DNA of 64,000 bases from Thermoplasmata archaeon (GCA_021806165.1 JAJZXY010000008.1:11334-75333), one strand, 5' to 3'. Counted from the first letter of the stretch, positions 1,186-64,000 are shown. Numbers and translations: made by a program. Notes: generated by a model not told the origin, from the letters alone.

Positions 1186-3606
1186 ATGACCGAGTCTGTC
1201 ACCCTTCACAGGGAGGAGACAAAGAATGTCAAGTGGGTCGGCAGCAGGTATCCAAGGAAGGAGGACTTGCGTTTCGTCACAGGCAACGGGATGTATGCTT
1301 CGGACATACGCATTCCAGGCCTGGCGCACGTGGCAATTGCGCGCAGCCCTTATGCAAGTGCGAAGATAAAGGGAATTGACAAGAGCAAGGCGCTTGAAGT
1401 TCCGGGCGTCGTTGCAGTCTTCACAGGCGAGGAGATCGTTGCAGAACTCGATCCTCTCCCCAACCTGCTTCCGTCCCCGTATGACAAGGTCAAGGATTAC
1501 GGGATTGCCGTCGACCGGGTGCGCTATGCAGGTGAGCCCATAGCTGTCGTGGTTGCGGAGAGCAACTATGCGGCATGGGACGCCGTGGAGCAGCTCGAGG
1601 TCGACTATGAACCACTGTCCCCAGTCCTGACAGCGAAGTCAGGGTGCGAGAAGGGCGCCCCCCTGGTCCATGAGAACGTTCCCACAAACGTTGTCTGGCA
1701 GAGAAAATTCACCTACGGGGACGTTGATGAGGTGTTCAAGACAGCTGATCTTGTGGTATCCAAGAAATTCAAGTGGCACAGGTTCACCTCCGCTCCACTT
1801 GAACCGAATGTTGTCGTGGTGGATTATGACAAGAGGCATGTGATATTCAACATCTGGAGCAACAACCAGCGCCCGGCGTTCAACCAGGCCGCCATTGCAA
1901 AAGCCCTCCGCATTGATGCAAACAGGCTTCACTTCATAAGCCCCGACATAGGCGGCGGGTTCGGAATCAAGAACGAGAATTACCCGTACATCATACTGCT
2001 GGCAGTTGCGGCAAGAAGGATAGGCAGGCCCGTTAGGTGGATAGAGACGAGGACGGAGCACATGGTCGCCTCCGCTCACGGCAGCGAGATCAACTACGAA
2101 GGGGAGATGGCCTTCTCCAGAGATGGCAAAATACTCGGATTGCGCGCCAAGGCATACCATGATGAGGGGGCGTACATGAGGAGGGAGCCCATCGCGGCAT
2201 TCAACTTCATCAGGCACGCCACGCTGACATACACCTTCAGGAACCTGGAGATGGACATTTATGCGGTAGTCACCAACAAGTGCCCAGTCGGCCCGAACAG
2301 GTCCTACGGGAAGATGCAGCAGGGTTTCCTTGTTGAGCGCCTCCTTGAACTTGGCGCCAAGAAGCTTGGCATCGACCCCATAGAGATCAGGCTCAGGAAT
2401 TTCGTTTCCTCGGAGCAGATGCCATATGAGACTCCAACGGGCGCCATACTTGACGGCGGCGACTATTCGAGAGCCCTGAAGAAGGTCCTGGAGAATATGG
2501 ACTACGCTGCCCTTGTAAAGGAGCGAGACAGGCTGAGGAGTGAGGGAAAGCTAGCCGGCGTGGGAATTTCGATGGGGATGGACGCCTGCCCCATAAACTT
2601 CTCCTCAAACAGGCTGATCAACCCCAAGTCGACCGCTTCAGGTGAAAGCGAGGCGGCCTGGGTCAAGATAGATGAGGATGGGAACATCTCGGCCGCCGTG
2701 GGCACATCACCGCAGGGCCATGGACATGAGACAGTCGTGTCGCAGATTGTTGCCGACGTCCTGGGTGTCCACCCGGAGCAAGTTTATGCCCTCCCAGGTT
2801 TTGATTCGTGGACGCACCCGTCAACCCCGCATTCAGGCACATACGCAAGCCGATTCGCCATAGCAGGCGCCTCGGCAGTCAACGAGGCCGCAAGAAGGGT
2901 AAGGGGGAAGGTCCTGCGAATCGCAGCATTTGCGCTGAAGGAGGATGTGGAGAACCTTGAGCTTGCCGACGGCAGCGTCGTTTCCACGAAGGGAAAGGGA
3001 AAGGTGCCGCTGAAGGAAGTGGCGAGGCTGGCATGGAGGGATCTTGCGAATCTCCCCGAGGATGAGGAGCCGGGTCTCTACTCCAATGTCATCTACAAGA
3101 CACCGTTCAAGCTCCCGATTGACAGCCAGAGGGGCAACTTCTCGCTGACATACAGCTACAGCGCCTGCGTGGTACTGCTTGAAATCGACCCGGGTACGGG
3201 TGTTTCCAGGGTGAAGCGCGTCGGAATTGTGGAGGACGCGGGCAACCAGATCAACCCGCTGATTGTCGAAGGGCAGGTCCATGGGCAGATGGGACACCAG
3301 CTTGGTGCCGCCCTCTACGAGGATCTGGTCTATGACGAGGCTGGCCAGCTGCTGACAGCGACATTCAAAGACTACCTTGCACCGACAGCCTCAGACCTTC
3401 CATCGTACGAGACAGGTTCCATAGTCGTCCCCTCGCTGTTCACACCCCTGGGAACGAGGGGCACGGGTGAGGGCGGCGGTGCGCCACTGATCGCCTGCGC
3501 GAATGCAATGGATGACGCCCTCCTCCCACTGGGTGTGGAATACGACAGCTCCTACCTGAGCCCGATAAAGATAAGGGAGCTTGTGAAAAGCGCATCCGGG
3601 AAGTAG
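1186..3606 (+). CDS. Mo-hydroxylase molybdopterin-binding large subunit (CoxL/XdhA aldehyde-oxidase family)
   Basis: The ORF track fuses it with an upstream frame. Real start is ATG 1186 (MTESVTLHREE...), 3 nt after the coxS stop, preceded by GGAGGAG. N-terminus RKEDLRFVTGNGMYASD; GGGFG(I/Q)K Mo-cofactor motif. 806 aa. Confidence 0.85.
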   Translation: MTESVTLHREETKNVKWVGSRYPRKEDLRFVTGNGMYASDIRIPGLAHVAIARSPYASAKIKGIDKSKALEVPGVVAVFTGEEIVAELDPLPNLLPSPYDKVKDYGIAVDRVRYAGEPIAVVVAESNYAAWDAVEQLEVDYEPLSPVLTAKSGCEKGAPLVHENVPTNVVWQRKFTYGDVDEVFKTADLVVSKKFKWHRFTSAPLEPNVVVVDYDKRHVIFNIWSNNQRPAFNQAAIAKALRIDANRLHFISPDIGGGFGIKNENYPYIILLAVAARRIGRPVRWIETRTEHMVASAHGSEINYEGEMAFSRDGKILGLRAKAYHDEGAYMRREPIAAFNFIRHATLTYTFRNLEMDIYAVVTNKCPVGPNRSYGKMQQGFLVERLLELGAKKLGIDPIEIRLRNFVSSEQMPYETPTGAILDGGDYSRALKKVLENMDYAALVKERDRLRSEGKLAGVGISMGMDACPINFSSNRLINPKSTASGESEAAWVKIDEDGNISAAVGTSPQGHGHETVVSQIVADVLGVHPEQVYALPGFDSWTHPSTPHSGTYASRFAIAGASAVNEAARRVRGKVLRIAAFALKEDVENLELADGSVVSTKGKGKVPLKEVARLAWRDLANLPEDEEPGLYSNVIYKTPFKLPIDSQRGNFSLTYSYSACVVLLEIDPGTGVSRVKRVGIVEDAGNQINPLIVEGQVHGQMGHQLGAALYEDLVYDEAGQLLTATFKDYLAPTASDLPSYETGSIVVPSLFTPLGTRGTGEGGGAPLIACANAMDDALLPLGVEYDSSYLSPIKIRELVKSASGK

Positions 3607-11742: not shown

Positions 11743-14164
11743 GTTTTTCCATGATAAGTGATTTGATGTAAACAGGACTCAGAGGCGTCTTCCTTAACTT
11801 GATACCCAGCGGTTTCAGAGCATCCTCGACCGAATTTGAAATAGCCGGCGGAGGCCCAATCGTTCCTGTTTCGCCCGCACCCTTGTAACCCCCCGGTGTG
11901 AAGGGGTTGGGCGTTATGAGGTGGGAGAGCACAAATTCAGGGACTTCCATCGATGTGGGCAGAAGATAATCCTTGAACGTTGTGTTCAGCGGCTGGCCGT
12001 TGGCATCGTATGCCAGCTCCTCGTAGAGAGCCCCTCCAATGCCATGTGCAAGTGCTCCTGTGTGCTGGCCTTCAACAATCATCGGGTTCAGCATGTTGCC
12101 GCAGTCGTGGACGGAGACGAATTTCACAATCTTGACAAATCCGGTGTTGATGTCCACTTCGGTGATGGCTATCTCGGCATCGTAGGGGAAGCTGCTGAAC
12201 ATGGCGACCCTGCCCCTCTCATCGCTCTGGAACTGGATATTGGGATCGCGGTAGTGGTAGAGCATTTCAAGACCGGGCTCCATACCCTCGGGAAGCCTGA
12301 AGACTTCGTAGTATGCAGCCTGCGCTATCTGCTGCATCGTTAGTGAATCGTCCGGCCGGGCCTTCCTGAAAACCTTTCCAGAGGCCAGATCAAGCTCCTC
12401 GACGCTGCATTTCATCAATGCGGCTGCTATTGCCAGTATCTTGTCACGGAGAATCCCTGCGGCCCCAAATACCCCGGAAGTCCCAACGACTGAAAAGCGG
12501 CTTGAGTATGAACCTGAACCAACCGGGCATGCTAGCGTGTCGCCTTCCACAACGTGTATATCATCAAAGGGCACCTGCAGTATCTCTCCTGCAATCTGAG
12601 ACGATGTGGTGATGTGTCCCTGGCCCTCTTCGCCTCCGCTCAGGAATATAAAGACCCTGGCGTCAGGGTCCATCCTTATCCGCACACTGTAATATCCAGC
12701 ATTGTAGGAACCCATCCTTGTTGAACTCGAGGGCTCGACCACGAGCGCCATGCCAATGCCCACATACCTCCCCTGTTCCCTGAGCTCCTTCTGCTTCTGC
12801 CTGAAGCCCCAGTAGTCTGCCAGGGACATTGCCTGCCTCAGAGCCTCCGGGTAGTTGCCGCTGTCATACCTTGGACCTGTTGCCGAAACGTAGGGAAATT
12901 CCGATGGAGGGATAAAATTCCTGAAACGGATCTCGCTCGGATCCATCGACAGCCTGTCTGCGATTATATCGACGAGCCTCTCGATGACATAGGCAGGTTC
13001 CGCCTTCCCGAATCCCCTGTGCGCACCGTATGGCGTCTTGTTTGTTGCAGCAGCGGTTATGTCTGCCTCGTAGTCCTGAATCTTGTATGCCCCGGGAACG
13101 AAGAACGCGCTTGTGACAATGGATGCCAGTCCGCCGACAGGGTATGCAGCACCCGCATTGGCTACTATGTGATCCCTGATCCCCACTATCCTGCCGTCCT
13201 TCATGACGCCGGCCTCGACCTCGTGCACCTGCTCCCTTGCGTGTGCGGTGCCTACCATGTGCTCGCTCCTGGTCTCAACCCACTTTACAGGCCTGCGGGA
13301 AACGATCGAGAGCAGTGGAACTATGATCTCCTCCGGATAGAAGCCCCACTTCTGGCCGAAGCCTCCTCCCACCCTTGACTGGAAGACCCTCGCCTTCATC
13401 CCTGGCAGGTCGATGGTCTGCTGTATGAGCCTGGCGATGTTGTGCGGGATCTGCGTCGAGTCCCACACGCTCAGAAGATTTGACGGGGCATCATAGTCGG
13501 CCACCACGGAGCGCGGCTCGATAGGCGTTCCCGTGAACCTTCCGCTGTATATCTTTTCCTTGACAATTATGTCCGCCTTCTTCATGGCGGCGTCCACATC
13601 CCCACCTGAAACGTGGAAGTAGAGTGCCCTGTTGTCACCCCAGTCGTTGTAGAGCAGTGGAGAATCCTTCTTCAGTGCCTCCTCCGAGTCCAGCACCGGT
13701 TCGAGCGGCTCGAATTCAGCTTCTATCGCCTCCAGTGCATCCTCGACAAGATACCTGTCAGTCCCGGCTATGGCGGCCACGGGCTCACCGACATACCTCA
13801 CCTTGTCAGTTGCAAGGCAGTAATGATCAAAGAACTTGATCCTCGGGTTGCCCCTCCTGAACGGATCCCTGCTCTGGAACGGGAACGGGGACAGGGGCTT
13901 GAGATAGCCGAGAGCCGTCATGTCGCTGCCCTTCAGTCCTGCTATTATGCCGTCCATCTTCAGCGCCTTTGACAGATCCACCTTCCTTATGATGGCATGA
14001 GCATAAGGGCTGCGGTAGATTCCGGCGTATAGCATGTTCTTGAATTTGACGTCGGCCCCGAACACCGCCTTTCCAACAAGCTTTTCATTGTCCTCTTTCC
14101 TCTTTACAGACCTGCCAATCAGGGTTTCCTTTTCAGTCAGCTGAACAAACTGGGAAGACGTCAT
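11723..14164 (-). CDS. Second Mo-hydroxylase large subunit (CoxL/XdhA family), without adjacent S/M subunit genes
   Basis: 813 aa; N-terminus RKEDxxLVxG; GGGFGQK motif; aldehyde-oxidase/xanthine-DH C-terminal domain pattern. Confidence 0.8.
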   Translation of the reverse strand: MTSSQFVQLTEKETLIGRSVKRKEDNEKLVGKAVFGADVKFKNMLYAGIYRSPYAHAIIRKVDLSKALKMDGIIAGLKGSDMTALGYLKPLSPFPFQSRDPFRRGNPRIKFFDHYCLATDKVRYVGEPVAAIAGTDRYLVEDALEAIEAEFEPLEPVLDSEEALKKDSPLLYNDWGDNRALYFHVSGGDVDAAMKKADIIVKEKIYSGRFTGTPIEPRSVVADYDAPSNLLSVWDSTQIPHNIARLIQQTIDLPGMKARVFQSRVGGGFGQKWGFYPEEIIVPLLSIVSRRPVKWVETRSEHMVGTAHAREQVHEVEAGVMKDGRIVGIRDHIVANAGAAYPVGGLASIVTSAFFVPGAYKIQDYEADITAAATNKTPYGAHRGFGKAEPAYVIERLVDIIADRLSMDPSEIRFRNFIPPSEFPYVSATGPRYDSGNYPEALRQAMSLADYWGFRQKQKELREQGRYVGIGMALVVEPSSSTRMGSYNAGYYSVRIRMDPDARVFIFLSGGEEGQGHITTSSQIAGEILQVPFDDIHVVEGDTLACPVGSGSYSSRFSVVGTSGVFGAAGILRDKILAIAAALMKCSVEELDLASGKVFRKARPDDSLTMQQIAQAAYYEVFRLPEGMEPGLEMLYHYRDPNIQFQSDERGRVAMFSSFPYDAEIAITEVDINTGFVKIVKFVSVHDCGNMLNPMIVEGQHTGALAHGIGGALYEELAYDANGQPLNTTFKDYLLPTSMEVPEFVLSHLITPNPFTPGGYKGAGETGTIGPPPAISNSVEDALKPLGIKLRKTPLSPVYIKSLIMEKLGGKNV

Positions 14165-16193: not shown

Positions 16194-18362
16194 TCACCTG
16201 AATGTAACGTATATCGGGCTGCTCCAGGCTGCCGCGCCGTCGGTCTGCAATACCTTCACGTGGTATGCAGCGGTAGTGCCAGGTTCACCCTTCACATCGG
16301 TGAATGCGCCTGAGAATGTCTCGCCAAGGGGACCGGGCAGCCTTTCCACTGTCACATGCAGGTCAAGCCCCCCGCACTCAAAGGTGCGCGGGCCGGCAAT
16401 TTCGGAAGTCCTGATGCTGAAGCTGTATATGCCCGTGCTGAACTCGAGCACCGTACCCTCGCTCTCATCCGCCTGCATGACAAACCCCTCCTCGTTGCCA
16501 GACGTGCTCGAGTGCCAGGCTACTGCCGATTCACCCCCCACCTCCAGAGTCTCCGCAGGGGACTGGAAGGCGTATGGAACAGCGCTCCTTATCCTTCCGT
16601 TGACAAGCCGTGCGCTGCCGTCCCAGACGGCAGTCCTTCCCCTGCCCCTGTTCCTTGCCCCTCCCCATTTGATCCTTATCGGCGATCCGCTCCCACCGGA
16701 AGGACCGCACCATTCATGGACCTTTTCCCATCCCCTCCTTATCTCCACCCTCTCAATCGGGGCGGTGCCTGCTGCTTTCACTCTTATTTCTGGGGCGTCT
16801 GCTGTTTCATAGGCTTCACCAATCATTCTGCCGTCAGAGCGCACATCCAGAAGTATGCGCTGCCCTGTAGTGGCGTAGCATCTTCTGGAGAAAAGCGCGT
16901 CCCAGATGGATTTCCTGGTAAGCTCCGTCGCCAGTATGCACGTCAGCCCGCCGCGCACGGCGAACTCCCTCCCGGGGTAGCTGGCTCCCGGTCTGCCAGT
17001 GTGGTCGTCGCTTCCGCCAACGAAGCCGATCCTGTATCCCCTCTCAAGCGCCTCCCTTGCAAACCATTCGAAATACCCCCAGGCCGAGCAGATCTCAACG
17101 CACGGTTCCACCGAGGCATCGTGGAAGGCAAGGTTCGCATACCTTCCGCCCACGTGGGCTACGGCCATTCCGCCCTCCCTGCGAAGGGCGTTGAAGAGCA
17201 GTTCGGCGCTGATGTAATCCTCCTCTCCCTCCTTTTCATCGATGAGCGTATGGCTCGAGTGAAGGACTTCACCCTCATCTCCAGGATAATAGATGTTCCT
17301 GTCCCCGCCGGTGCCTGTGTTTCCCGACCATTCGAAGCCCAGAAGCGCCACCATCCTGCTAGGCTCGTCTGTCTCGGCAACGACCTTCCTGATTTTTTCC
17401 CAGACCTCGGGCGACATCTCGAAGTCATTTCCCTGGTGGCCCACGAAATCAATTCCGCTTGCCTCTTTCGCATACCACATGTACTCCTCAATGGGGTTGA
17501 TGCCGACCGTCTCCTCACTCTGGCCGTGCAGATCCCCCCAGAACCGCCTCAGCTTATCGCTGTGCGGGGTGCAGTCGATATGGTTGCACTCGACTGCAAG
17601 GCTGCCGGAGGAGGCACTGATCTTATGCACACCCTCCTTCACTGCCCTTACGCCCGTGATCCTTGCCGCGCCTTTCCCCGTCACATGCAGCATGCCAGGC
17701 AACCCCTCCAGGTGGCTGTTGCCCGCGAAGTCGACTGTGAGATCGCATCCCTTTGCAAGATTCCCCCACCTGTCCTCAACCCTGACGGTAACAGCAAATT
17801 CCTCCCCTGGCTCAACGGCCGTGGGGGCAACAACCGCAACCTTCGCAGGCTTCCCTGCAACTATCCTTACCGGGTGCCCCTCCAGCTCCCTGTAAATCCC
17901 GGTTCCGAAATTGTCCACGAGCAGCTTGAACTCGAATGTCTCCTCGCAGTATGTCTGTACCTGATAGCCGGGCGAGCCGCCGTCCCCGCTGCCGATCTTC
18001 AGAATCACAGTGTCTCCAGGAGAAAGATTGCCGTCGTAAACCTCTATCATGAACGCCCTCTTCCAGGGCCGCACATAGCCTCTAGGGTAGCGGCTGCCGC
18101 GCAGGCTGGCATTGCCGGTTGTGCTGATATGGACATAATTGCTTCCAGCCGGATCACTGCTCTGTATAAGGCCGCCGTCGCTCACATCCCTGGTGCAGAC
18201 GATAATCGAGCCCCCGTCGTCAATGCCGAAGGCGCCTACGCGGATGGTGATGTCGAATGTCGCGATATCGCCGGCAACCACCTCTGCCGGGAAGATTTCA
18301 TAGCTTCCGTACCTCTCCTGGAGCTGGCTCTCGGAACCGGTTTTGAAAGGCTGGGAATTCAT
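16194..18362 (-). CDS. DUF3604-like large protein (possible PHP-type metal-dependent hydrolase)
   Basis: 722 aa. Central FWGDLHGQSEET segment and His/Asp-rich region recall DUF3604; the assignment is tentative and from memory. The long plus-strand ORF 16356-18533 opposite it is a GC-driven shadow. Confidence 0.4.
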   Translation of the reverse strand: MNSQPFKTGSESQLQERYGSYEIFPAEVVAGDIATFDITIRVGAFGIDDGGSIIVCTRDVSDGGLIQSSDPAGSNYVHISTTGNASLRGSRYPRGYVRPWKRAFMIEVYDGNLSPGDTVILKIGSGDGGSPGYQVQTYCEETFEFKLLVDNFGTGIYRELEGHPVRIVAGKPAKVAVVAPTAVEPGEEFAVTVRVEDRWGNLAKGCDLTVDFAGNSHLEGLPGMLHVTGKGAARITGVRAVKEGVHKISASSGSLAVECNHIDCTPHSDKLRRFWGDLHGQSEETVGINPIEEYMWYAKEASGIDFVGHQGNDFEMSPEVWEKIRKVVAETDEPSRMVALLGFEWSGNTGTGGDRNIYYPGDEGEVLHSSHTLIDEKEGEEDYISAELLFNALRREGGMAVAHVGGRYANLAFHDASVEPCVEICSAWGYFEWFAREALERGYRIGFVGGSDDHTGRPGASYPGREFAVRGGLTCILATELTRKSIWDALFSRRCYATTGQRILLDVRSDGRMIGEAYETADAPEIRVKAAGTAPIERVEIRRGWEKVHEWCGPSGGSGSPIRIKWGGARNRGRGRTAVWDGSARLVNGRIRSAVPYAFQSPAETLEVGGESAVAWHSSTSGNEEGFVMQADESEGTVLEFSTGIYSFSIRTSEIAGPRTFECGGLDLHVTVERLPGPLGETFSGAFTDVKGEPGTTAAYHVKVLQTDGAAAWSSPIYVTFR

Positions 18363-18600
18363 ACGCGCGCGATTACACTTGTTGATTATATTGTTTCCCC
18401 ACGACCACCTTTTCCACGACCGTCAGGACTCATGCGGCATGCCGCGGATCTCGAAAATGAGCCATCTCCTTTAGAAACAGGTGTTTTTCGGCTTTCCCCC
18501 CTTTCCCGTTTTGTAAGAAATATATTCTTGTAATTGTCCGTTTTTGTGCAATGACGGTGCATCTGAATCTTTAAATAAGAAAAGTTCTTGGACCCTGACA

Positions 18601-53521: not shown

Positions 53522-54187
53522 TTGTATAATTATTACTTCTTTTATATGGAACCAATTGCAGACCTCATTACCGGTGACAGGTTAAGACTTGCAGAACTGC
53601 AGGATGGGGTGATAGATATCATCTACAATCGTATTGAACCTGATGCGATACTCTATGGCGGAACTGCTATTTGGCGCTGTTATGGCGGCAACAGATTTTC
53701 TGAGGACATCGATATATACTTGAGCAACAGAGGGCTGAACAAATTCATTCGGTCATTACCTAAATACGGCATTCGCCTGCTTTCCCGGGACAAAGAATTA
53801 CCGTCAATAATCAGGATTGCGAAAGGGGAAACAAGTTTGTTGCTGGAGACGAAGGAAGGGCACTCGGAGAGCATGATAAGGCAATATGTCCGAGTCGATG
53901 GCAGCTCTACAACTGTCAGCGTGTTCACTCCAGCTGAAATGTTAATCAGGAAGATAGAAGCATACCAAGGAAGGAGATTTGTTCGAGATGTCTATGACAT
54001 CTTCATACTAACCAGGTTTCTGGACAAAAGTGACCATGTTGTTGCTTCGTCGCTCTCCTCCTTCCTGGCAAAATCCAAACCGCCTGTTGACGAAGATGTG
54101 CTCAAATCACTGATATACACAGGAAAGGGCGATTTTCGATATAGTGAAATGCTGGGCTACATCAAGAGGTGGTTAAGCGAAGTATGA
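53522..54187 (+). CDS. AbiEii/AbiGii-family nucleotidyltransferase (type IV TA toxin-like)
   Basis: 221 aa; ILYGGTAIWRCYGGNRFSEDIDIY matches the AbiEii GGTAL...R.SeDiD motif. Confidence 0.6.
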   Translation: MYNYYFFYMEPIADLITGDRLRLAELQDGVIDIIYNRIEPDAILYGGTAIWRCYGGNRFSEDIDIYLSNRGLNKFIRSLPKYGIRLLSRDKELPSIIRIAKGETSLLLETKEGHSESMIRQYVRVDGSSTTVSVFTPAEMLIRKIEAYQGRRFVRDVYDIFILTRFLDKSDHVVASSLSSFLAKSKPPVDEDVLKSLIYTGKGDFRYSEMLGYIKRWLSEV

Positions 54188-54188
54188 A

Positions 54189-54773
54189 CGTTCATTTGCA
54201 GAGTACTTCGGAAGGCTTCCTCTGTTTACCGCCGGAGACGCCAAGAGGTATCTTGCAAGCCTAGGTTCTAGTGAGGAATACTCCAGGCTGCTCCTTCATA
54301 ATCTGGTGAGGGGCAAGCGGTTGGTGCGAATTAAGAAAGGGTTTTACACATTCTCAAATGATGAGAACGTAATTGGCTTCGCCTTCAGGCCCTTCTATTA
54401 TGGCATGGAGTACGCTCTCACGCTTCGGAAGATATGGACACAGCAAGCAAATCCAGTAATCATAACCACCTCAAAGGCAAATGCCGGATTGAGAGAGGTG
54501 ATGAAATCAAAGGTGATAGTTCGGAGGATTGATTCTCACGCATTCTTTGGGTTCGAGTACCTGAGCTTCTCTGGACTATTCGTTCCAGTGTCATTACCAG
54601 AGAAGATACTGCTGGACTTCCTGTACTTTCGTGCTGACATCGATCCAGTAACTCGACAGGCATTGATTAATGAATCCAACCGGAAAGTTCTGAGGGAGTT
54701 TGCAGAGAGAATGGGTAGCCGTTACTCGACGCAGATTGATTCCCTAATCAGTGACAGTATGGTTGGGGACTGA
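54189..54773 (+). CDS. AbiEi_4-family antitoxin-like wHTH protein; start codon unresolved
   Basis: The frame is open from directly after the upstream stop (RSFAEYFGRLPLFTAGDAKRYLASLGSSEEYSRLLLHNLVRGKRLVRIKKGFYTF...) and matches the AbiEi N-terminal wHTH. The first start codon is GTG 54306. C-terminal ...VSLPEKILLDFLYF matches the family. Confidence 0.5.
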   Translation, partial: RSFAEYFGRLPLFTAGDAKRYLASLGSSEEYSRLLLHNLVRGKRLVRIKKGFYTFSNDENVIGFAFRPFYYGMEYALTLRKIWTQQANPVIITTSKANAGLREVMKSKVIVRRIDSHAFFGFEYLSFSGLFVPVSLPEKILLDFLYFRADIDPVTRQALINESNRKVLREFAERMGSRYSTQIDSLISDSMVGD

Positions 54774-56442: not shown

Positions 56443-56700
56443 ATGCTTGAAGAAGAAATGAAAGTCGGGCCTAAAGGGCAGGTAGTCATACCGAAATCAT
56501 TCAGGAAGATACTGAAGATTCTTCCAGGCTCGAAGGTAAATTTCAGGTTGGAAGGTGACTCTGTTGTCATCGAAAAGGTTAGCTCCGACTCTGTCGACAT
56601 ATTCAATAGGATTGCCCATTCAGGTGGTTCTGTTAAGAAGATTTCCCCACATGAGTATGAAGCAGAGCTTGCGGGAAGGAATCCCAGTGAAATATCTTGA
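56443..56700 (+). CDS. vapB: VapB-type antitoxin (AbrB/SpoVT swapped-hairpin)
   Basis: 85 aa; VGPKGQVVIPKSFRKILKILPGSKV. Confidence 0.65.
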   Translation: MLEEEMKVGPKGQVVIPKSFRKILKILPGSKVNFRLEGDSVVIEKVSSDSVDIFNRIAHSGGSVKKISPHEYEAELAGRNPSEIS

Positions 56701-57085
56701 TGCAAACGTCTTCATCTATGCCGCACTCAACGTTGAGCAGCAAGGTGAAAGAGCTAGAGCATTGCTTCAAAGAGTTCAGGATGGTAAGGACAAATGTTGT
56801 TCATCGGCTCTGACCTTTGACGAAATCGTTTACGTTGTCGGAAAACACAAGAACCTTGAACTTGGGAGAATAGCGGGCGAGGCATTCCTCGAACTGCAAG
56901 GGCTTGACATCATTCCGGTGGATGAGAAACTCCTGCATGACACGGCGCGTCTGATTAGGATTTATAACCTGAAGCCTCGAGACGCAATCCATGCTTCCAG
57001 TGCCCTTTTGCGAGGAGTGCAAGTGATGGTTTCCACTGACTCGGATTTCGACAAAGTCAAGGAATTGAAAAGAGTTGGAATTTGA
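56651..57085 (+). CDS. vapC: PIN-domain toxin VapC
   Basis: YLDANVFIYA N-terminal Asp motif, STDSDFDK C-terminal acidic motif. Start is ATG 56651/56657 or GTG 56687, overlapping vapB. Confidence 0.65.
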   Translation: MSMKQSLREGIPVKYLDANVFIYAALNVEQQGERARALLQRVQDGKDKCCSSALTFDEIVYVVGKHKNLELGRIAGEAFLELQGLDIIPVDEKLLHDTARLIRIYNLKPRDAIHASSALLRGVQVMVSTDSDFDKVKELKRVGI

Positions 57086-57421: not shown

Positions 57422-57829
57422 TCAGTAGTCAACAATCTCGAGATCTCGAATTCTGTTGAAGTGCTCCCTGTTTCTTGTCACCAGCTTGAATCCATAGCGG
57501 AGTGCTGTGGCCGCAATGTATGTGTCATTTATTCCAATCTGTCTTCCTTGCCTCGCTAAGACCGCATGTATCTCGGCGCTGATCTGAGCTATTTCATGAT
57601 CTAGCGGTAATATGTCGAATTGCTCCAGTTCCTGAATCGCAGCTTTCAGTTTCTCGTTGAAGTTGGCAGTTTTGTGAAATCTGTAGCGGATTCCAAATAG
57701 ATACTCATGTACAGAAATAGCGGAGATAGCAACCACAGACTCTTCCTCATCAGCCTTGTTGGCAAGTTCCTTGGCTCCCTCATCCGAATTGATAAGGTCT
57801 ATGATGAAGGAGGTATCGTAGAGCGTCAT
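57422..57829 (-). CDS. vapC: PIN-domain toxin VapC
   Basis: Start MTLYDTSFIIDLIN (57829); GINDTYIAATAL C-terminal motif. ATGA-type overlap with the upstream antitoxin. Confidence 0.65.
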   Translation of the reverse strand: MTLYDTSFIIDLINSDEGAKELANKADEEESVVAISAISVHEYLFGIRYRFHKTANFNEKLKAAIQELEQFDILPLDHEIAQISAEIHAVLARQGRQIGINDTYIAATALRYGFKLVTRNREHFNRIRDLEIVDY

Positions 57830-57830
57830 T

Positions 57831-58055
57831 TTAGAGTCCTTTCTTGAGCTTCTTGGATGTAGCGAACTCCGATGTCGCAAGATGCTGCATCGCTTCCTGC
57901 CAGTCTTTTCGACCGATTGTCCTCCTTCCTGCAAGGTCTGAAATGCGACCTCTCTTGAAGTTCCGTTTTATAACCGAAGAGAAGCTCTCGTTCGGCAACT
58001 TCGCCTTCTTCAGGAGTCTGTAGACTTCATCTGATATTGCAATAGTTTTTGCCAT
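57831..58055 (-). CDS. vapB: VapB-type antitoxin
   Basis: 74 aa; MAKTIAISDEVYRLLKKAK... typical small antitoxin N-terminus. Coupled to the vapC. Confidence 0.6.
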   Translation of the reverse strand: MAKTIAISDEVYRLLKKAKLPNESFSSVIKRNFKRGRISDLAGRRTIGRKDWQEAMQHLATSEFATSKKLKKGL

Positions 58056-58324: not shown

Positions 58325-59398
58325 TTAGGCGTGAGTGACTTCACACATGTCTGCAGGGTATATGCCAGTTGACTTTTTCCTGGTATGCTTACTCACTCTC
58401 TTCTGTAAAATCGCCCTATGTTCTTCATTATCAATCCCATTCTTCAAGGAATATAGGACTTCCTTGGACATGGAATACATCAAACCTCTAGCTCCAACAA
58501 ACATGCAATTTATGGAGGCTAGCTTTTGTCCTTCATCTATGGAATGTTGTATGACTTCTTTTTTTGGTCTGTTGTGGTCGATTCCACCATTCACAAATAA
58601 GCTCGATAAAAATCCAGCTGAAAACCAATCACCCGCGCCCGCTGTATCCCTAACGACTATAGCTTTATACCCCTTTACTGTTCGCCACTTTCCTCCATTC
58701 AGGCTAAATTTTACTCCTTTTTCACCTCTTGTCACTATGGTGATAGGTGGTTTTGGCCAGCTCCCGTTGCTTCTGATAACCAACCTTCTATAGACTCTTT
58801 CGTTGCACTTCAAAACATGAGAGAGTTTCAATGCTCTCTTGAAATAACCCTCATTACCAATGTTGTTAGGTTCGAAAAATACAAGGGCTTGTTTATTGCT
58901 AAGTACTTCCGCCATTCTAAGAGAAGCGGGAAATGCTCTGTCGAAATAGAAAACTTTTGGTCGAACAGCATTGGAGGGCAACTCAGGAACTTCTGCAAGT
59001 CTCGGGGGTTTGAATTTAGGAAATCTAGTGTTACATAGAGGACATTTCATAGAATAGTTGTGCATTACATTATTGGACTTCTCTCTTAACACTTTTTCAA
59101 GAACTACCGGAGTTCTCCCATTACTAGATCTTCTGATAAGAGAAACGTTTACCCCCTGATCTTTCATATCTGAAACGACCAAATCTGATGCCAACCCCTT
59201 TGACAAATTCGCTATGGGGTATGTCGACCAGCCTAAGTAAGATAGGATAGTCAAGACATTTCCGCACGAGCCACCAACTCTCATACTAACTTCTTGTCTG
59301 TCACCATCTATCACAATCAAATCGAGTGTAACAAATCCCATTCCCACAGCAACGAGATTTTTCCCTTTTTCTTGCGTATACAATGCTTTCCTAATCAT
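58325..59398 (-). CDS. PfkB-family (ribokinase-like) sugar/nucleoside kinase with an internal insertion
   Basis: GGSCGNVLTILSYLG N-terminal GG motif and an exact match to PfkB signature 2 (DTAGAGDWFSAGFL). About 50 extra aa including MKCPLCNTRFPKFKPP between them. Confidence 0.65.
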   Translation of the reverse strand: MIRKALYTQEKGKNLVAVGMGFVTLDLIVIDGDRQEVSMRVGGSCGNVLTILSYLGWSTYPIANLSKGLASDLVVSDMKDQGVNVSLIRRSSNGRTPVVLEKVLREKSNNVMHNYSMKCPLCNTRFPKFKPPRLAEVPELPSNAVRPKVFYFDRAFPASLRMAEVLSNKQALVFFEPNNIGNEGYFKRALKLSHVLKCNERVYRRLVIRSNGSWPKPPITIVTRGEKGVKFSLNGGKWRTVKGYKAIVVRDTAGAGDWFSAGFLSSLFVNGGIDHNRPKKEVIQHSIDEGQKLASINCMFVGARGLMYSMSKEVLYSLKNGIDNEEHRAILQKRVSKHTRKKSTGIYPADMCEVTHA

Positions 59399-59450
59399 AT
59401 CTCAATTGCCTAATTTCCGGGTTAGTTATAAAGACAACTCAAACCTGCAA

Positions 59451-60587
59451 TCAGTCATAGAACTCACCAAACAGTCCTACCAAGAAAAGTTGACTTTGGC
59501 TATCTAATTCGTCCAGATTGTTTGTTTTGGGCATATCATAGCCTTGCACTTGTACATGTGCGAGACTTGAGCTGTAGCCTTTCCTGTTTAGTTCATATGC
59601 TGCCATTAAGCCACCTAGGGATAATAACTTGCTCGAATGTGCACTTATTGCAATGTTACACCCTCCGAGAGAATCAAGTGCTTTCCGATACCTTTCCGCG
59701 GTTAAAGAAATCTGTCTGTAGGCTTCGAATGGATTGTTTTCGGAGACGTAGATTATATTGTGAGGTTCAATATCCCATTCATCGAAAAGTAACTGTCTGT
59801 GCGACAAGACAATATCGTCGCTTCTGCGAGGATTAATTGAAGGATTTGGCAAGACCGGTGAAATCTCGTCCGGATTTACCAATTCGTGCACCTTTCTTAG
59901 TTGGTCAGTTTGATCTTCGCCAAGTATGGGTATCCATATTCTTGGTAAATTGCCTGATCCCTCTAGGTCGAATCCACTACCGAATCCTCTAACATATTCT
60001 GCCGCGTCATCTATTCCCACTTTCCTAATCTGTTTATCCAAAGCAGCGTTTTCTGCTGCGACAATGAGCAGATTTCTCCTTTTATCTTCGCCGCGTTTCT
60101 TGGCGTCATCAAGCAACGAAAGGATCTTTCCAATCAGAGGAAAGAACACACTTCGTGGCAGCGAGCTAATATCCACGACAATTGAATCATATTCGAGATC
60201 GTCTATTGATTTGATCAGTGCCGCCGCATTTTGACTTGTCACTCTTCTCCTTCCAGAACCTTGTCCTTTCCACATTTCCACAGTCTTCTGAAGGATGGAT
60301 CCACCGTAACCTTCGACTATCTGCTTTGCCTTATTCACGTTCTCAATTAAGAGAGCCTCATGTTTGCGAGAGGGAGATTCCTTGCCTTCTTCAAATTCCA
60401 CCATTATGCAGTCTTTTCTTCCGTTACTGCTGTGGCTGAATATGGATTCCAATCCTAGAGTCATTCTTGGGTCGAATCCCACTCCGCTAAAGTACAGTAA
60501 ATCACAATTTTCGCTGGAAAAGAAAGAGCTGAGAAAGGAAGTCACCTCCTCATTTTTCTTTGTGAAGTACGGATCCCATCTCAACAC
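59451..60587 (-). CDS. Hypothetical protein (378 aa), operon member
   Basis: No motif I can assign; alternating hydrophobic strand and helix pattern suggests a Rossmann-like fold. 3-nt gap to the upstream NTPase gene. Confidence 0.4.
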   Translation of the reverse strand: MLRWDPYFTKKNEEVTSFLSSFFSSENCDLLYFSGVGFDPRMTLGLESIFSHSSNGRKDCIMVEFEEGKESPSRKHEALLIENVNKAKQIVEGYGGSILQKTVEMWKGQGSGRRRVTSQNAAALIKSIDDLEYDSIVVDISSLPRSVFFPLIGKILSLLDDAKKRGEDKRRNLLIVAAENAALDKQIRKVGIDDAAEYVRGFGSGFDLEGSGNLPRIWIPILGEDQTDQLRKVHELVNPDEISPVLPNPSINPRRSDDIVLSHRQLLFDEWDIEPHNIIYVSENNPFEAYRQISLTAERYRKALDSLGGCNIAISAHSSKLLSLGGLMAAYELNRKGYSSSLAHVQVQGYDMPKTNNLDELDSQSQLFLVGLFGEFYD

Positions 60588-60590
60588 AGA

Positions 60591-62522
60591 TCACTTCTTC
60601 TTTTGCTTTCTTATCTGACGCAGATCGCCCGCGATCCAAGTGTTCATCTCATCCAATTTAACATGTCTCCAACCGCCATATTGCAGCGGTAAACCGAACA
60701 AAAGGCATAACCATCTGTTAAGATACATCACCATCCATTTCTTCCCGGCGTATCCTTGGGATCTATCCATATGCACCTCAAGAAGGTTGTTCGAGATCGA
60801 TGTGGACAGCACATTAGTCAATAGACTATATTTACCGTCAGGACTAGCTCTGTTGTAATCTATAAGTCTTTTACGTTCATACATGCTGATGGCAATGCCA
60901 GATATGGATCCTGCTGCTCCATATGAAGCAGTCCCTTTCAACCATTCTGACTTAGCTATCTCCTTTATCGCAGTCAGTAGATTCACAACTTCGGTTCCGT
61001 ATGGGATCTTAAGTCCCATATTCTCCCATCGCGATTTTGCAATTCTATTCAATATCAATTCTTGTCTATCTGTTGGCAAGATAGACTTTCCGCTGAGCAA
61101 GTTCAATGCAAGTATCTCTTCAAAAAGATCAGCTGCGAATGTAAGAAATTGATCGAAATTAGAGCTAGACAAAAGGGCGAGTCTGTCAGGCCCAAAGTAA
61201 TACGGCACTTTGAACTCATCGGAGACCATCCTATCGGCAGCATTCCGAAGAACGCTATCCTCCAATTTTTCGAGGTTACCAAGATGTGTTGGGATGCCAA
61301 CTTGTAATCTTTGTTGGTTCTTTGACAAATCCCTTCTTAACAATATCTCTAACACTCGTAGGGCTATCATCTTTTCTCTAGGGGTGGACTGAGTTTCAAG
61401 TATGGCGCGCTCTAGTGGTAGTATGTTTGAAAAGTGTCTGTCCGCTTCTTTGATGCGATTTTGAATAGTATCGAGGCCCAGTTCATATTGTTCTTCCCAA
61501 GAAGAGCTGTCTATCGTATCTTCCAAGCAAGCACGGAAAGAGGTTAAGGATATTTCAGGCACCAACGCCAATCTTCTATCCGCAATGTCAAACGCTGCTT
61601 TTTCAAATGACTTATACCTGTCTCTCCAAAATTTTTCAAGATCGATTGGTTTACCATAATCTCTCCCTTCATTGGCCCCATCCCCCGTCAAATCCTGGAA
61701 GTCAAGAGCTTCCAGTCTTTGAGCAACCCAGACTGTCGGTCTCGGTCGTGTCTGCAGTATTGTCTCTGTTAGGATCTTTCTTTGTTTTTGTGAAAGCTTG
61801 TGGGCATCATCCAGTTCAATGATGACCCTTGAAATGACTTCCTCTCCGTCGATTGTGAAGTTTCGGGGTTGAAGAAGTGTAAGAGAAATAAGTGACTCAT
61901 GACCAGAGACTTCCAAGTTAGTTGGCCTTATGAAACTGTCAACTACTTTGGCCGCGTCTCTCTCAAGATTGCAGGCCCAGTCGTAGATATCTCTCCCCGA
62001 GCAAGGGAATTCAATAACTCTACCCAGTTCTATATTATGTTCTAGGTCAACGGTTATTCTGGAAAGGTCGTTGGGATAATTCAGTTTCTTGAGTTCACTC
62101 ATTCCCCTTAAGGCTGCAAGGATTAATCTTGAGTCTAAGATAGCGAAGAAGAGTCTGTTCATTTGGGCCGGACTTAAGTTCATATCCTCCAAAGATGCGT
62201 AGTTCCTAGCACATGAATGAAGGACGCCTAGCACCCTCGGCCCTTGTTCAGATACGGCATCAAGCATGACCAATTTTCCATAGAGTTCTTTGAGGTCTTC
62301 ATTTCTTCTAAGGCTAAATAACGTAGTCAAAGAACTTGGTGTGAATAGTCTCAATAGAGTAGTCTTGCCGCCACCTGGAGCACTCTGTATGACGTGAAGA
62401 TTGTTCCAAAAATTATTGGTGTCGAGCACGTCAAGAGCGGCGGGAGCAAATAGCCTCAGGAACTCATCCACGTCGTTAATATCTTCTGCTGTTCTAAGCC
62501 TAAATGGATTGCGTGGTATCAT
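60591..62522 (-). CDS. P-loop NTPase (STAND/AAA-like), about 643 aa
   Basis: Walker A SAPGGGKTTLLRLF, Walker B IIELDDAHKL, long helical C-terminal region. Start placed at MIPRNPF (62522), which forms an ATGA overlap with the upstream stop; the track ORF extends to 62654. Confidence 0.55.
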   Translation of the reverse strand: MIPRNPFRLRTAEDINDVDEFLRLFAPAALDVLDTNNFWNNLHVIQSAPGGGKTTLLRLFTPSSLTTLFSLRRNEDLKELYGKLVMLDAVSEQGPRVLGVLHSCARNYASLEDMNLSPAQMNRLFFAILDSRLILAALRGMSELKKLNYPNDLSRITVDLEHNIELGRVIEFPCSGRDIYDWACNLERDAAKVVDSFIRPTNLEVSGHESLISLTLLQPRNFTIDGEEVISRVIIELDDAHKLSQKQRKILTETILQTRPRPTVWVAQRLEALDFQDLTGDGANEGRDYGKPIDLEKFWRDRYKSFEKAAFDIADRRLALVPEISLTSFRACLEDTIDSSSWEEQYELGLDTIQNRIKEADRHFSNILPLERAILETQSTPREKMIALRVLEILLRRDLSKNQQRLQVGIPTHLGNLEKLEDSVLRNAADRMVSDEFKVPYYFGPDRLALLSSSNFDQFLTFAADLFEEILALNLLSGKSILPTDRQELILNRIAKSRWENMGLKIPYGTEVVNLLTAIKEIAKSEWLKGTASYGAAGSISGIAISMYERKRLIDYNRASPDGKYSLLTNVLSTSISNNLLEVHMDRSQGYAGKKWMVMYLNRWLCLLFGLPLQYGGWRHVKLDEMNTWIAGDLRQIRKQKKK

Positions 62523-63655
62523 CTCGAAGTACCACCTTGTTTGTGCCTGCTCACACGAGGGAAGAGCCCATGATAGTTGAAGCCTCCCCCGAACCATAAG
62601 ATCGGAATCGAATTGTTGGGGGTATTGTGAAAAAGGATGAGTGGTAGAGCACACTCATCAAATCCATATTGTGGATTGTCTGTCTTGCCCTTTTCGTAAT
62701 TCGTGTCGACTACTCTTGGATCAAAATAATGCTTCAGCAATGATTCCAATCTCATATCGCTGTAATTATTCACACCCAGCGCAGTTGGTAGCTCTTGGAT
62801 TGTCATCAGTCGAAAATCACATGAACAATCAAATACTTTCTGAAATTCGCTTACGGTTTCGTTGATTTTTCTCTCTGCACGTTCGGTCGCAGAATAAAGA
62901 ACTACAATTACCCTTAAGTTAGCCTTGTCAAAAAGGGTGTTTAGAGCCAAGCCCGAATAATAGATAGATTTCAATATTCTTATTATCTTTCCATCATAAT
63001 CTTCTTCATCCTTCCTTGCATAGCTATAACCACTCCCTGAGAAGTCGTCCAGTAGGAACAAGTTCACGAATTTTGCGTCATCCTCATCTATTGAAGACTC
63101 CTTCGGAAGATCTTCCCGCAACTTAAGAAGGAGGTCCCTTGCTTCTTCATCATCTATCCTGTAGTATGGCAAGATTTGTTCATGGGTAAGTGATGGGTTG
63201 GCGCGTCGAAAGATGTCAATGTGGGCTCCATCACTCATGGCTAGGAATAAGCTCTTCCTCAGAGCGGTCTTGTAATGCTTTCCATTTATCAGCTGGTCTA
63301 GTTTGAAAGGTGAGTTGCCGCTCAATTCTGAAGCCTGTTGCATAAGAAATGGCCTTATGAAGTCTGGAAACGCAATAGTGACCAAGTGCTGCATTTCGAG
63401 TTCTGATATGAAAATCAATCGTCTCCGGACAAAATCATAAGCACAAATCCGCTCTTCTTTAGTCTCGAACTGTTGAAGCCACAAAGCGAGACTCTCAACG
63501 AAACGCATGCCTGGGGCAAACTGCTGATAGTCATTGTATTTCATCGATGAAATGACTTGGAGGTCTCTCCTTTGACTTGCAACATCCTCAGCCGTCCAGT
63601 CCATAATCCTAGCAAGAAGTTTCTCGGCGAGCGCATCTTTCATTGTTACCTCCAA
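62519..63655 (-). CDS. Hypothetical protein with PRTase-like PRPP-binding motif (tentative)
   Basis: 378 aa; VNLFLLDDFSGSGYS resembles the type I phosphoribosyltransferase hhhhDDxxxTGGT loop. The rest is unassigned. Confidence 0.35.
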   Translation of the reverse strand: MEVTMKDALAEKLLARIMDWTAEDVASQRRDLQVISSMKYNDYQQFAPGMRFVESLALWLQQFETKEERICAYDFVRRRLIFISELEMQHLVTIAFPDFIRPFLMQQASELSGNSPFKLDQLINGKHYKTALRKSLFLAMSDGAHIDIFRRANPSLTHEQILPYYRIDDEEARDLLLKLREDLPKESSIDEDDAKFVNLFLLDDFSGSGYSYARKDEEDYDGKIIRILKSIYYSGLALNTLFDKANLRVIVVLYSATERAERKINETVSEFQKVFDCSCDFRLMTIQELPTALGVNNYSDMRLESLLKHYFDPRVVDTNYEKGKTDNPQYGFDECALPLILFHNTPNNSIPILWFGGGFNYHGLFPRVSRHKQGGTSR

Positions 63656-63658
63656 AAC

Positions 63659-64000
63659 CTATAAATCGATATCTAGTTGCCATTTGTATTCTTCCTTAAG
63701 CTTCAACCAGCAGAAGTACCTTGCAGTTAGTATCGTTCCGAGTTCTCCTTCAGCCCCCATATTCCAACATTTTTCCTTATCATTAGAGACTTCATCAACA
63801 CTTAATCCAAGTCTATGATTCAGCAGTTCAAAGTCATTACCAGGCCATGCACCTTGATCGCCTATTCTAAGAATTTCATCATCTTTGCATTTGACTCGAG
63901 CCTTCAGGAAGTCTATTATTCTTGCCTTAGAGAGCTTGTGGTCTATAATATCAACCGAGTGACCCGACATAATGGCCTTCAACGGCAATGCATTTCCTAT
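63659..64000 (-). CDS. HAD-superfamily hydrolase-like protein, 5'-partial (continues past window end)
   Basis: Frame is open to position 64000. C-terminal ...ILRIGDQGAWPGNDFELL resembles HAD motif IV (GDGxND). The track start at 63988 is TTG. Confidence 0.35.
   Translation of the reverse strand: MGNALPLKAIMSGHSVDIIDHKLSKARIIDFLKARVKCKDDEILRIGDQGAWPGNDFELLNHRLGLSVDEVSNDKEKCWNMGAEGELGTILTARYFCWLKLKEEYKWQLDIDL

Follow-up and report, generated by a model that had tools for sequence, protein, structure and literature searches.

The end of a 64,000-nt stretch of the genome of a Thermoplasmata archaeon (GCA_021806165.1, JAJZXY010000008.1:11334-75333; hereafter the window, meaning the whole of this stretch) raises the question of what common task is performed by five co-directional genes occupying its minus strand at positions 58325-64000, as revealed by open reading frame (ORF) calling. 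They encode a SIS-HAD fusion protein, a phosphoribosyltransferase (PRTase), an ORC/Cdc6-like AAA+ ATPase, a CARF protein and a PfkB-family kinase, the whole cassette being about 7.3 kb in size. CARF domains are receivers of the second messengers of type III CRISPR systems; here they are found in a five-gene unit with neither CRISPR nor cyclase, which is spread over both prokaryotic domains via plasmids, transposons and defence islands. The cassette is probably an uncharacterised immune signalling pathway. More specifically, we read it, tentatively and at somewhat less than even chances, as a self-contained, horizontally transferred unit of defence type, in which a CRISPR-independent CARF system is combined with a nucleotide-targeting PRTase effector and with a sugar-phosphate module making or clearing the ligand.

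The 378-aa protein, which an earlier note made from the sequence of the window had left unassigned, turned out to be a CARF protein, and this recasts the system as a ligand-sensing pathway. It matches the PADLOC model CARF6 from end to end (E 2.4e-107). When the CARF, PRTase and ORC families were searched as profiles against the complete set of PDB sequences, no match was obtained, and fold comparison was therefore needed. The closest solved structures in this comparison were all CARF proteins binding cyclic oligoadenylates (cOA), with Can1 (PDB 6sce) ranking first, followed by Csm6, Cam1, Can2, Card1, Csx1, Csa3, a ring nuclease and SAVED domains; the protein thus has the Rossmann-like CARF fold. 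The alignments covered 228 residues to Can1 and 189-195 residues to the SAVED domains, lengths that more than one CARF domain is needed to account for, and the secondary structure comprises two beta-alpha-beta units. Comparison of the two halves with each other by hhalign revealed no sequence similarity and no internal repeat. The conserved motifs GFDxR, DISxLPR and SSKLLS are located at ligand-loop positions. The family is small (831 cluster representatives of 1.84 billion), and almost all of its members are 360-390 aa long, and therefore never fused; the window protein stands alone, having no effector domain. Judging from the modelled fold, the tandem CARF is predicted to be a small-molecule receptor, and its two putative domains per chain should form one asymmetric ligand pocket, as in Can1.

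This structural kinship, with Can1 at the top of a list of cOA-binding proteins, together with the placement of the sensor among CARF families by PADLOC and the existence of CARF-HAD phosphatase effectors in type III systems, would be expected if the cassette were an orphan module ancillary to type III CRISPR-Cas, its CARF protein reading cOA from a Cas10 complex whose genes lie at another place in the genome. We consider such an explanation very improbable: CRISPR-like arrays were found neither in the 64-kb window nor within 10 kb in 84 loci, Cas families were absent from the commonest neighbour families, and in many hosts the cassette resides on plasmids or Tn7-like elements. Moreover, the strict linkage of the sensor to four enzymes would be left unexplained.

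The PRTase belongs to the Pfam family PRTase-CE (PF24390; 75.2 bits at a cut-off of 27, E 1e-20, profile positions 4-253 of 253), the name of which is reportedly due to Nicastro, Burroughs, Iyer and Aravind (NAR, 2023). Its structure was predicted from database homologues, and the fold was then compared. In the protein, a helical domain of ~130 aa at the N-terminus is joined to a type I phosphoribosyltransferase fold with an acidic loop binding phosphoribosyl pyrophosphate (PRPP); in this loop, LLDDFSxSG, the residues D199-D200, S204 and G205 are invariant, and the motifs SDG...RR and HNTPNNS are conserved as well. Among the models of PADLOC-DB 2.0 it matches the PRTases of type III-A retrons. 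A search for fusions to other effectors with the helical domain as a query returned gene fragments alone. Judging by its intact motifs, the PRTase-CE is apparently active and is predicted to be an effector or an N-glycosidic-bond enzyme; the role of a nucleotide-degrading immune effector has been predicted for PRTase-CE in the literature. We regard it as the output of the system rather than a pathway step, because its homologues serve as retron effectors, because duplicated gene sets (see below) keep it together with the CARF protein and the ATPase, and because the family bears the name of a conflict effector.

The ATPase is a member of the Pfam family ORC-CDC6-like (PF24389; 55.5 bits at a cut-off of 27, residues 5-519). 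Its previous designation as a STAND/AAA-like NTPase is thus to be corrected to ORC/Cdc6-like AAA+. Invariant residues are found in Walker A (PGxGKT; G50, G52, K53) and Walker B (hhhhD[DE]; D238), as well as at R269 and R287, and the C-terminal region of ~250 aa is conserved. In PADLOC-DB 2.0 this protein produced only a chance-level match to GajB. Apparently, the ATPase is active, and it is predicted to be an ATP-driven switch, scaffold or sensor acting with the CARF protein and the PRTase.

The first gene of the cassette had been described as HAD-like. The phosphatase assignment was correct, while the window contains only the last 109 aa of a SIS-HAD gene that runs past the window end. The complete gene was read from an ENA contig (L001) which is 100% identical to the window over 5918 nt, and it encodes a 635-aa protein with an N-terminal double SIS, the fold of phosphosugar isomerases/deaminases like GlmS, NagB-II and AgaS, fused to a C-terminal Cof-type HAD-IIB phosphatase. 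In profile searches the C-terminal half matches Hydrolase_3, S6PP and Cof-type HAD structures, and in the homologue alignment the HAD motifs DxD (D388, D390) and GDxxxND (D570, D578) are invariant, T425 being nearly so. The N-terminal 340 aa match the double-SIS structures 8eol/3hba (NagB-II/GlmS-like) over residues 23-239 (E 1.2e-5). The KLKE...HG catalytic motif of the GlmS/NagB-II family falls on K227, E230 and H246 in the alignment. No variation was seen at E230 and H246, and K227 is nearly invariant (at least 90%), the correspondence to GlmS residue numbers being presumed by us. The protein therefore possesses two SIS domains with the catalytic Lys/Glu/His together with HAD motifs I-IV.

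The kinase matches PF00294 with 55.3 bits at a cut-off of 25.8. Its residues G42 and G43 (the GG lid dipeptide), D251, G254, G256 and D257 are invariant, the catalytic GAGD is intact, and its nearest solved relatives are the PH1459 sugar kinase, ketohexokinase and fructokinase. None of the NCBIfam equivalogs was reached (the best score was 45.5 bits at a cut-off of 330, others being lower); weak matches under the cut-offs were obtained with ribose-1-phosphate kinase, nucleoside kinase, fructoselysine 6-kinase and ribokinase, and RfaE domain I also stayed below its cut-off. Residues ~100-135 form a family-specific insertion with an invariant His113, a majority C-P-x-C and the consensus FxCPxCGxxLPxYKP, which may represent a small lid that binds metal and is absent from ordinary sugar kinases. 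Neither PfkB nor SIS-HAD has a match in PADLOC-DB 2.0. As far as can be judged from the sequences, the kinase, isomerase/deglycase and phosphatase are apparently active. Taken together, the families and motifs of the five proteins agree with the set of nucleoside or sugar-phosphate enzymes coupled to an NTPase that had been suggested earlier.

How strictly these genes belong together was estimated by scanning one genome per species (185,579 species) with an alignment of CARF homologues, which revealed relatives in 197 species; the best 80 loci from these species were compared, and the five proteins were tested in them by tblastn. Each of the 80 loci contains these genes only, with order and strand unchanged (28-51% identity); the full set of five is present in 73 of them, the remaining 7 ending at a contig edge. 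The five-gene set is thus conserved far beyond chance. A sixth conserved gene was not found upon clustering of 708 flanking ORFs, the largest flank cluster being confined to 8 loci. Junctions are mostly 4-nt overlaps (69 complete loci), which, along with the co-directional ORFs and tight junctions of the window copy, bears out the single transcription unit supposed earlier; its co-occurrence across bacteria and archaea is likewise borne out. The archaeal hosts represent ten lineages (10 loci), including Methanosarcina, Methanoregula, Methanotrichaceae, Bathyarchaeia and Nitrosopumilus. The bacterial ones belong to more than 10 phyla, among them Bacteroidota, Chloroflexota, Planctomycetota, Acidobacteriota, Myxococcota, Cyanobacteria, Nitrospirota, Armatimonadota, Bacillota and Verrucomicrobiota. 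Closest to the window copy are those of Armatimonadota (51%) and Bacillota (47%), and not the archaeal ones (40-44%), which indicates horizontal transfer. Nearest neighbours of the cassette are mixed: the commonest are type I and type IV restriction genes, methylases, GajB-like helicases, PbeA, DRT, PD-T4-6 and AbiC, accompanied by integrases, resolvases and transposases, every common family accounting for 2-4 of 148 neighbours; as raw counts, these are only suggestive of a defence or mobile setting.

Transfer by mobile elements is evident from plasmid relatives detected by tblastn in 19 records, 9 of them conjugative, from Rhizobium, Agrobacterium, Sinorhizobium, Sulfitobacter, Sphingomonas, Bradyrhizobium, Burkholderia, Paenarthrobacter and other hosts. 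No copies were found in 50,697 GenBank phage records or in IMG/VR, and the viral folds of BFVD gave generic Rossmann matches only. The plasmid variants were read from annotated regions, seven of them (L085-L091) being confirmed by our own tblastn. In Sulfitobacter (L085) the genes have the canonical order and are set between conjugation genes; in Agrobacterium/Shinella (L087, L094, L098) the same order is found beside Tn7-like TniQ/TniB genes and a Shedu nuclease. Where Tn7-like TniQ/TniB/transposase genes adjoin, the cassette may be transposon cargo; it is not mentioned in a paper on Tn7 cargo. One plasmid copy (L096) is decayed. In five rhizobial/Devosiaceae plasmids a gene of the 'RHE_PE00001 family' (DUF1612 + HTH_13) directly adjoins the cassette.

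The cassette could still be an ordinary accessory operon for catabolism or salvage of a nucleoside, an amino sugar or a glycated amine, with CARF and AAA+ as its regulators and with no role in conflicts. PfkB, SIS and HAD are classic families of sugar metabolism, PGAP and other sources name parts of the cassette 'sucrose-6-phosphate hydrolase', 'fructokinase' or 'carbohydrate kinase', and several copies reside on large rhizobial plasmids rich in catabolic genes. To such an operon we ascribe hardly any probability, as it would have to be devoid of a linked transporter, of a transcription-factor domain and of any sixth conserved gene, and to be distributed extremely patchily in both domains. A low-GC island, recurrent defence and mobile-element neighbours, and a PRTase of an effector-type family common to retrons fit it poorly, and a 640-aa AAA+ ATPase with conserved Walker motifs would be an unusual catabolic regulator. 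The enzymes have no equivalog-level match to those of known pathways; all NCBIfam matches are far under the curated cut-offs, so a housekeeping operon was rejected, in line with the earlier note.

Gene order in the plasmid copies provides an insight into the organisation of the cassette. The PRTase, ORC and CARF genes (the triad) precede the SIS-HAD and PfkB genes in Paenarthrobacter (L088) and Rhizobium (L095), and follow them in Bradyrhizobium (L092). In Rhizobium tumorigenes (L089) and S. meliloti (L090) two divergent triads are accompanied by a single SIS-HAD + PfkB pair; the triads of subtype A are ~35-40% and those of subtype B ~24-32% identical to the window proteins. Both subtypes, and the permuted form as well, keep the catalytic and ligand-loop motifs of PRTase, ATPase and CARF. 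The two triads of L089 have a patatin-like phospholipase gene between them. The permuted orders, the duplicated triads and the shared enzyme pair imply that the cassette consists of two modules. The first would be a sensor/switch/effector triad of tandem CARF, ORC/Cdc6-like AAA+ and PRTase-CE, and the second a trans-acting ribose or sugar-phosphate pair of PfkB and SIS-HAD, joined in some lineages by a NADAR or a dCTP-deaminase-like protein.

The same modularity bears on the possibility that the four enzymes build an unusual nucleoside or nucleotide analogue poisoning the replication of the invader, for which viperin products and psicofuranine-type nucleosides are precedents. The sugar would be phosphorylated and isomerised, a base attached by the PRTase and the product dephosphorylated, with CARF and AAA+ being regulators or a feedback sensor. 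Pathways to nucleotide sugars and nucleoside antibiotics do employ the classes to which PfkB, SIS, HAD and PRTase belong, SIS + PfkB + HAD has a parallel in the GmhA-HldA-GmhB set that makes ADP-heptose, and the four enzymes are strictly co-inherited with all active sites conserved. Nevertheless, triads are duplicated without the other enzymes, which ties the PRTase to CARF/AAA+ and not to the sugar enzymes, and in retrons homologues of PRTase-CE are the lone effector partner. Given also that there is no pyrophosphokinase to activate C1 of the sugar for the PRTase, and no linked transporter or resistance gene, we find biosynthesis of an analogue improbable.

The accessory genes suggest a further alternative. 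A gene with a NADAR domain (Pfam E 1e-25), often accompanied by a small helix-turn-helix regulator, is attached to the SIS-HAD/PfkB pair in six plasmid loci of Proteobacteria. Proteins of the NADAR family hydrolyse N-ribosyl linkages to exocyclic amines (riboflavin intermediates in the case of YbiA, ADP-ribosyl-guanine in the case of DarT-associated NADAR). The cassette might accordingly perform reversible phosphoribosylation with a toxin-antidote logic like that of DarT-DarG/NADAR. Here the PRTase-CE would be a toxin that takes ribose-5-phosphate from PRPP and attaches it to an amine, be it in a base, a nucleotide, a nucleic acid or a protein. In uninfected cells NADAR, PfkB, the SIS deglycase and HAD would strip the adduct and its Amadori-rearranged or dephosphorylated forms, CARF and AAA+ deciding when the toxin prevails. 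A common antidote is what one would expect where two triads share one enzyme pair, and the SIS domains are of the GlmS/NagB-II/FrlB type known for amino-sugar and Amadori chemistry, with catalytic Glu/His kept. PfkB and double SIS also mirror the FrlD/FrlB kinase-deglycase pair, as the weak match to fructoselysine 6-kinase indicates, although this similarity is far under the family cut-offs. NADAR was present in none of the 80 genome loci and is absent from the window copy, so that reversal by NADAR does not belong to the core logic, and a ligand-binding CARF would be left with regulation as its sole role. On balance, we regard the toxin-antidote scheme as doubtful.

NADAR enzymes act on ribosylamino-pyrimidine products of GTP cyclohydrolase II, and in a single case (L095:1014-1613) a GTP cyclohydrolase II gene was seen near the cassette, with an IS66 insertion and a DUF4231 gene in between. 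Another accessory gene, dCTP-deaminase/dUTPase-like (PF22769), is inserted between SIS-HAD and PRTase in one Armatimonadota and one Bacillota metagenome-assembled genome. Its presence within the operon in two lineages indicates nucleotide-pool chemistry, and the protein may be an additional nucleotide-pool effector. In the Armatimonadota locus (L083) YlzJ-like (PF14035) genes were found on either side of the cassette (2865-3092 and 12329-12547), which looks like a duplicated insertion site or a target-gene duplication.

The immune signalling pathway that we favour is supported by the strict linkage and the modularity of the genes, the CARF identity of the sensor, the PRTase-CE membership of the candidate effector, the conservation of active sites across subtypes, the low-GC defence surroundings, the association with plasmids and TniQ-TniB, and the patchy spread (197 of 185,579 species). 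Upon infection or plasmid entry the second module would produce a small molecule of phosphorylated ribosyl or amino-pentose type, the level of which it would also set by phosphorylation, isomerisation and dephosphorylation. The molecule would be bound in the single asymmetric pocket of the tandem CARF, and ligand-bound CARF, in concert with an AAA+ protein that switches or oligomerises in an ATP-dependent manner, would activate the PRTase-CE. By making or breaking N-glycosidic bonds of nucleotides or PRPP, the latter would drain nucleotide pools or phosphoribosylate a target, and the cell would be arrested together with the invader, i.e., the infection would be aborted. A bolder proposal, which we rate as rather unlikely, is that PfkB and SIS-HAD (in some lineages NADAR as well) make and turn over a second messenger not known before. 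Chemically it would be a phosphorylated ribosyl or amino-pentose compound and not a cyclic oligonucleotide, and the tandem CARF would read it. If true, this would be the first CARF pathway with a signal from sugar-phosphate enzymes instead of a nucleotide cyclase, and one messenger module could serve several PRTase-ORC-CARF triads per cell.

Several facts weigh against this pathway. We infer the defence role from genomic context, and the cassette lacks any known signal synthase (Cas10, CD-NTase, TIR, cyclase). To our knowledge, a set of kinase, isomerase and phosphatase is unprecedented as a messenger generator, and Cof-type HAD, double-SIS and PfkB proteins are typical enzymes of sugar metabolism. 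The source of the CARF ligand could instead be the invader or even the PRTase, and in the Burkholderia locus (L086) PfkB was not detectable by tblastn. If the model is right, it implies a new immune messenger or a new route of infection sensing, the use of a phosphoribosyltransferase as an immune effector, and a modular design with one metabolic module feeding several sensor-effector triads. The occurrence of a compact cassette in culturable hosts (Agrobacterium, Rhizobium, Sinorhizobium, Sulfitobacter, Olivibacter, Chryseobacterium, Flavobacterium) makes it directly testable.

The coordinates of the genes of the cassette, of its accessory genes and of the neighbouring genes are listed in Table 1.

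Table 1. Cassette genes, flanking genes and variant genes; positions without a locus number are those of the window.
Feature	Position	Strand or place	Basis
SIS-HAD, 3' end (last ~113 codons of 635-aa gene)	63659..64000	-	ORF + L001
PRTase-CE, 374 aa	62519..63643	-	Pfam + fold
ORC/Cdc6-like AAA+ ATPase, 643 aa	60591..62522	-	Pfam + motifs
Stand-alone tandem-CARF protein, 378 aa	59451..60587	-	PADLOC model + fold comparison
PfkB/ribokinase-family kinase, 357 aa	58325..59398	-	Pfam + motifs
AbiEii toxin	53522-54187	flank	Pfam
MazE/AbrB-type antitoxin + PIN toxin	56443-57085	flank	Pfam
VapB antitoxin + PIN toxin	57422-58055	flank	Pfam
Type IIG restriction-methylase/DrmMI-like gene, 1382 aa	L001:1-4590	opposite operon	PADLOC REase_MTase_IIG, E 3e-117
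PLD + SNF2/ResIII helicase, 1058 aa	L001:1-4590	opposite operon	
Duplicated triads	L089:4920-9116, L089:11414-15574, L090:1-1079, L090:4995-9128		
NADAR genes	L086:3406-3999, L089:1301-1798, L090:3985-4482, L093:3925-4413, L095:11970-12464, L096:12909-13460		
dCTP-deaminase/dUTPase-like gene	L083:6232-6894 (= L002:6253-6912), L003:5047-5706		
RHE_PE00001 family genes	L087:2617-3765, L091:1637-2743, L098:2653-3765, L089:16050-16972, L090:9222-10358		

As read from the sequence, the stop codon TAG of SIS-HAD is followed by GTTTTGGAGGTAACA, a spacer of 15 nt with a GGAGG ribosome-binding site, and then by the ATG of the PRTase gene at 63643, the start favoured by homologues. The gap of 3 nt given previously for this junction needs an upstream TTG at 63655, which has no homologue support. 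The other three figures were reproduced: the ATGA stop/start overlap at 62519-62522 between PRTase and ORC, 3 nt between ORC and CARF, and 52 nt between CARF and PfkB. The GC content is 0.41-0.44 over 58-64 kb, compared with 0.50-0.61 over the first 50 kb of the window, and AbiEii, the PIN pairs and the type IIG gene surround the cassette; the low-GC island among toxin-antitoxin and restriction genes is thereby confirmed. Of the flanks reported earlier, two VapBC pairs and an AbiE-like pair, both antitoxin-PIN pairs were recovered, one of MazE/AbrB type and one with VapB, together with AbiEii, and the AbiE pair was shown by half. The ORF adjoining AbiEii (54306-54773, plus strand) has no Pfam match and lies downstream, not upstream, of it, i.e., not in the canonical AbiEi-AbiEii arrangement. 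Past the window end, upstream of the operon and divergent from it, two defence-type genes, those for the type IIG enzyme and the helicase, constitute a second defence system bordering the cassette. The rest of the window appears to be archaeal, containing archaeal-type KaiC, glutamate synthase and glyceraldehyde-dehydrogenase-like Mo enzymes, all under the equivalog cut-offs. In its high-GC part two ORFs, 16194-18362 (minus strand, 722 aa) and 16356-18533 (plus strand, 725 aa), overlap almost wholly, and one of them is probably a shadow ORF; the minus-strand ORF, which alone was scanned, against NCBIfam only, gave a weak match to CehA/McbA metallohydrolases.

As for the novelty of the cassette, no named anti-phage system of PADLOC-DB 2.0 corresponds to it, the matches being those to the generic CARF6 and retron-PRTase models, and full-text literature searches found no experimental study of it; an earlier in-silico description of the whole five-gene arrangement is possible. 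Pfam has curated families for both PRTase-CE and ORC-CDC6-like, under adjacent accessions (PF24390/PF24389), which, along with the existing CARF6 models, means that the parts have already been catalogued in silico, most likely by Makarova et al. in 2020 (CARF classification) and Nicastro et al. in 2023. 'Undescribed' is therefore true in part only, and what survives of the earlier proposal is its core, a conserved, mobile, nucleotide-related multi-gene system. The analogy with the Ter-associated pathway drawn in the earlier note is confined to the PRTase and HAD phosphatase superfamilies present in both: TerD/TerC/TerB, ATP-grasp and HpcH/CitE-like proteins were found neither among the cassette proteins nor in the conserved flank clusters or top neighbour families, and the Ter reading was rejected in the absence of Ter genes and of a conserved sixth gene.

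Among better known systems, GmhA (SIS)-HldA (PfkB)-GmhB (HAD) and FrlD (PfkB)-FrlB (double SIS) draw on the same three enzyme superfamilies as the cassette. The matches to them are, however, far below the equivalog cut-offs, and the cassette differs from them in having SIS and HAD fused and in the linkage of the trio to CARF, AAA+ and PRTase on mobile elements. DarT-DarG/DarT-NADAR likewise places an N-ribosyl-bond-forming enzyme beside NADAR, as several plasmid variants of the cassette do; in the latter the transferase is a PRTase (PRPP-dependent fold) and not of the ART fold, NADAR is optional, and three further proteins are obligatory. AAA+ ATPases that belong to the ORC/Cdc6 clade occur in defence systems, e.g., BrxC/BrxD of BREX and DUF499 (PMC12839542). 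With BrxC/BrxD the cassette ATPase shares the ORC/Cdc6-like core, Walker motifs, conserved arginines and location in a defence-type island, whereas PglZ, PglX and other BREX partners are lacking and the protein has a Pfam family of its own. In PRTase-CE systems, including type III-A retrons, the PRTase is of the same family and fold with the same PRPP loop, but its partners in the cassette are CARF, an AAA+ protein of ORC-like type and a module of kinase, isomerase and phosphatase instead. A type III-A retron was rejected, since there is no RVT domain in the five proteins, no conserved sixth gene, and no Rfam family, whether riboswitch or retron RNA, within the cassette or next to it; an accessory module of type III CRISPR was rejected for the lack of arrays in the window and in 84 loci and of Cas families among the commonest neighbours. 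Finally, the sensor has the same fold as the type III CARF sensors (Can1, PDB 6sce; Csm6, Can2, Card1, Cam1, Csx1) and, as the length of the Can1 alignment suggests, may also have two CARF domains per chain. In contrast to them, it has no fused effector, Cas10 or nearby CRISPR array, and its gene is accompanied by those for an AAA+ ATPase, a PRTase and sugar-phosphate enzymes. Known components, not named as a system in PADLOC-DB 2.0, would be united here into CARF-based immune signalling with a nucleotide-targeting effector.

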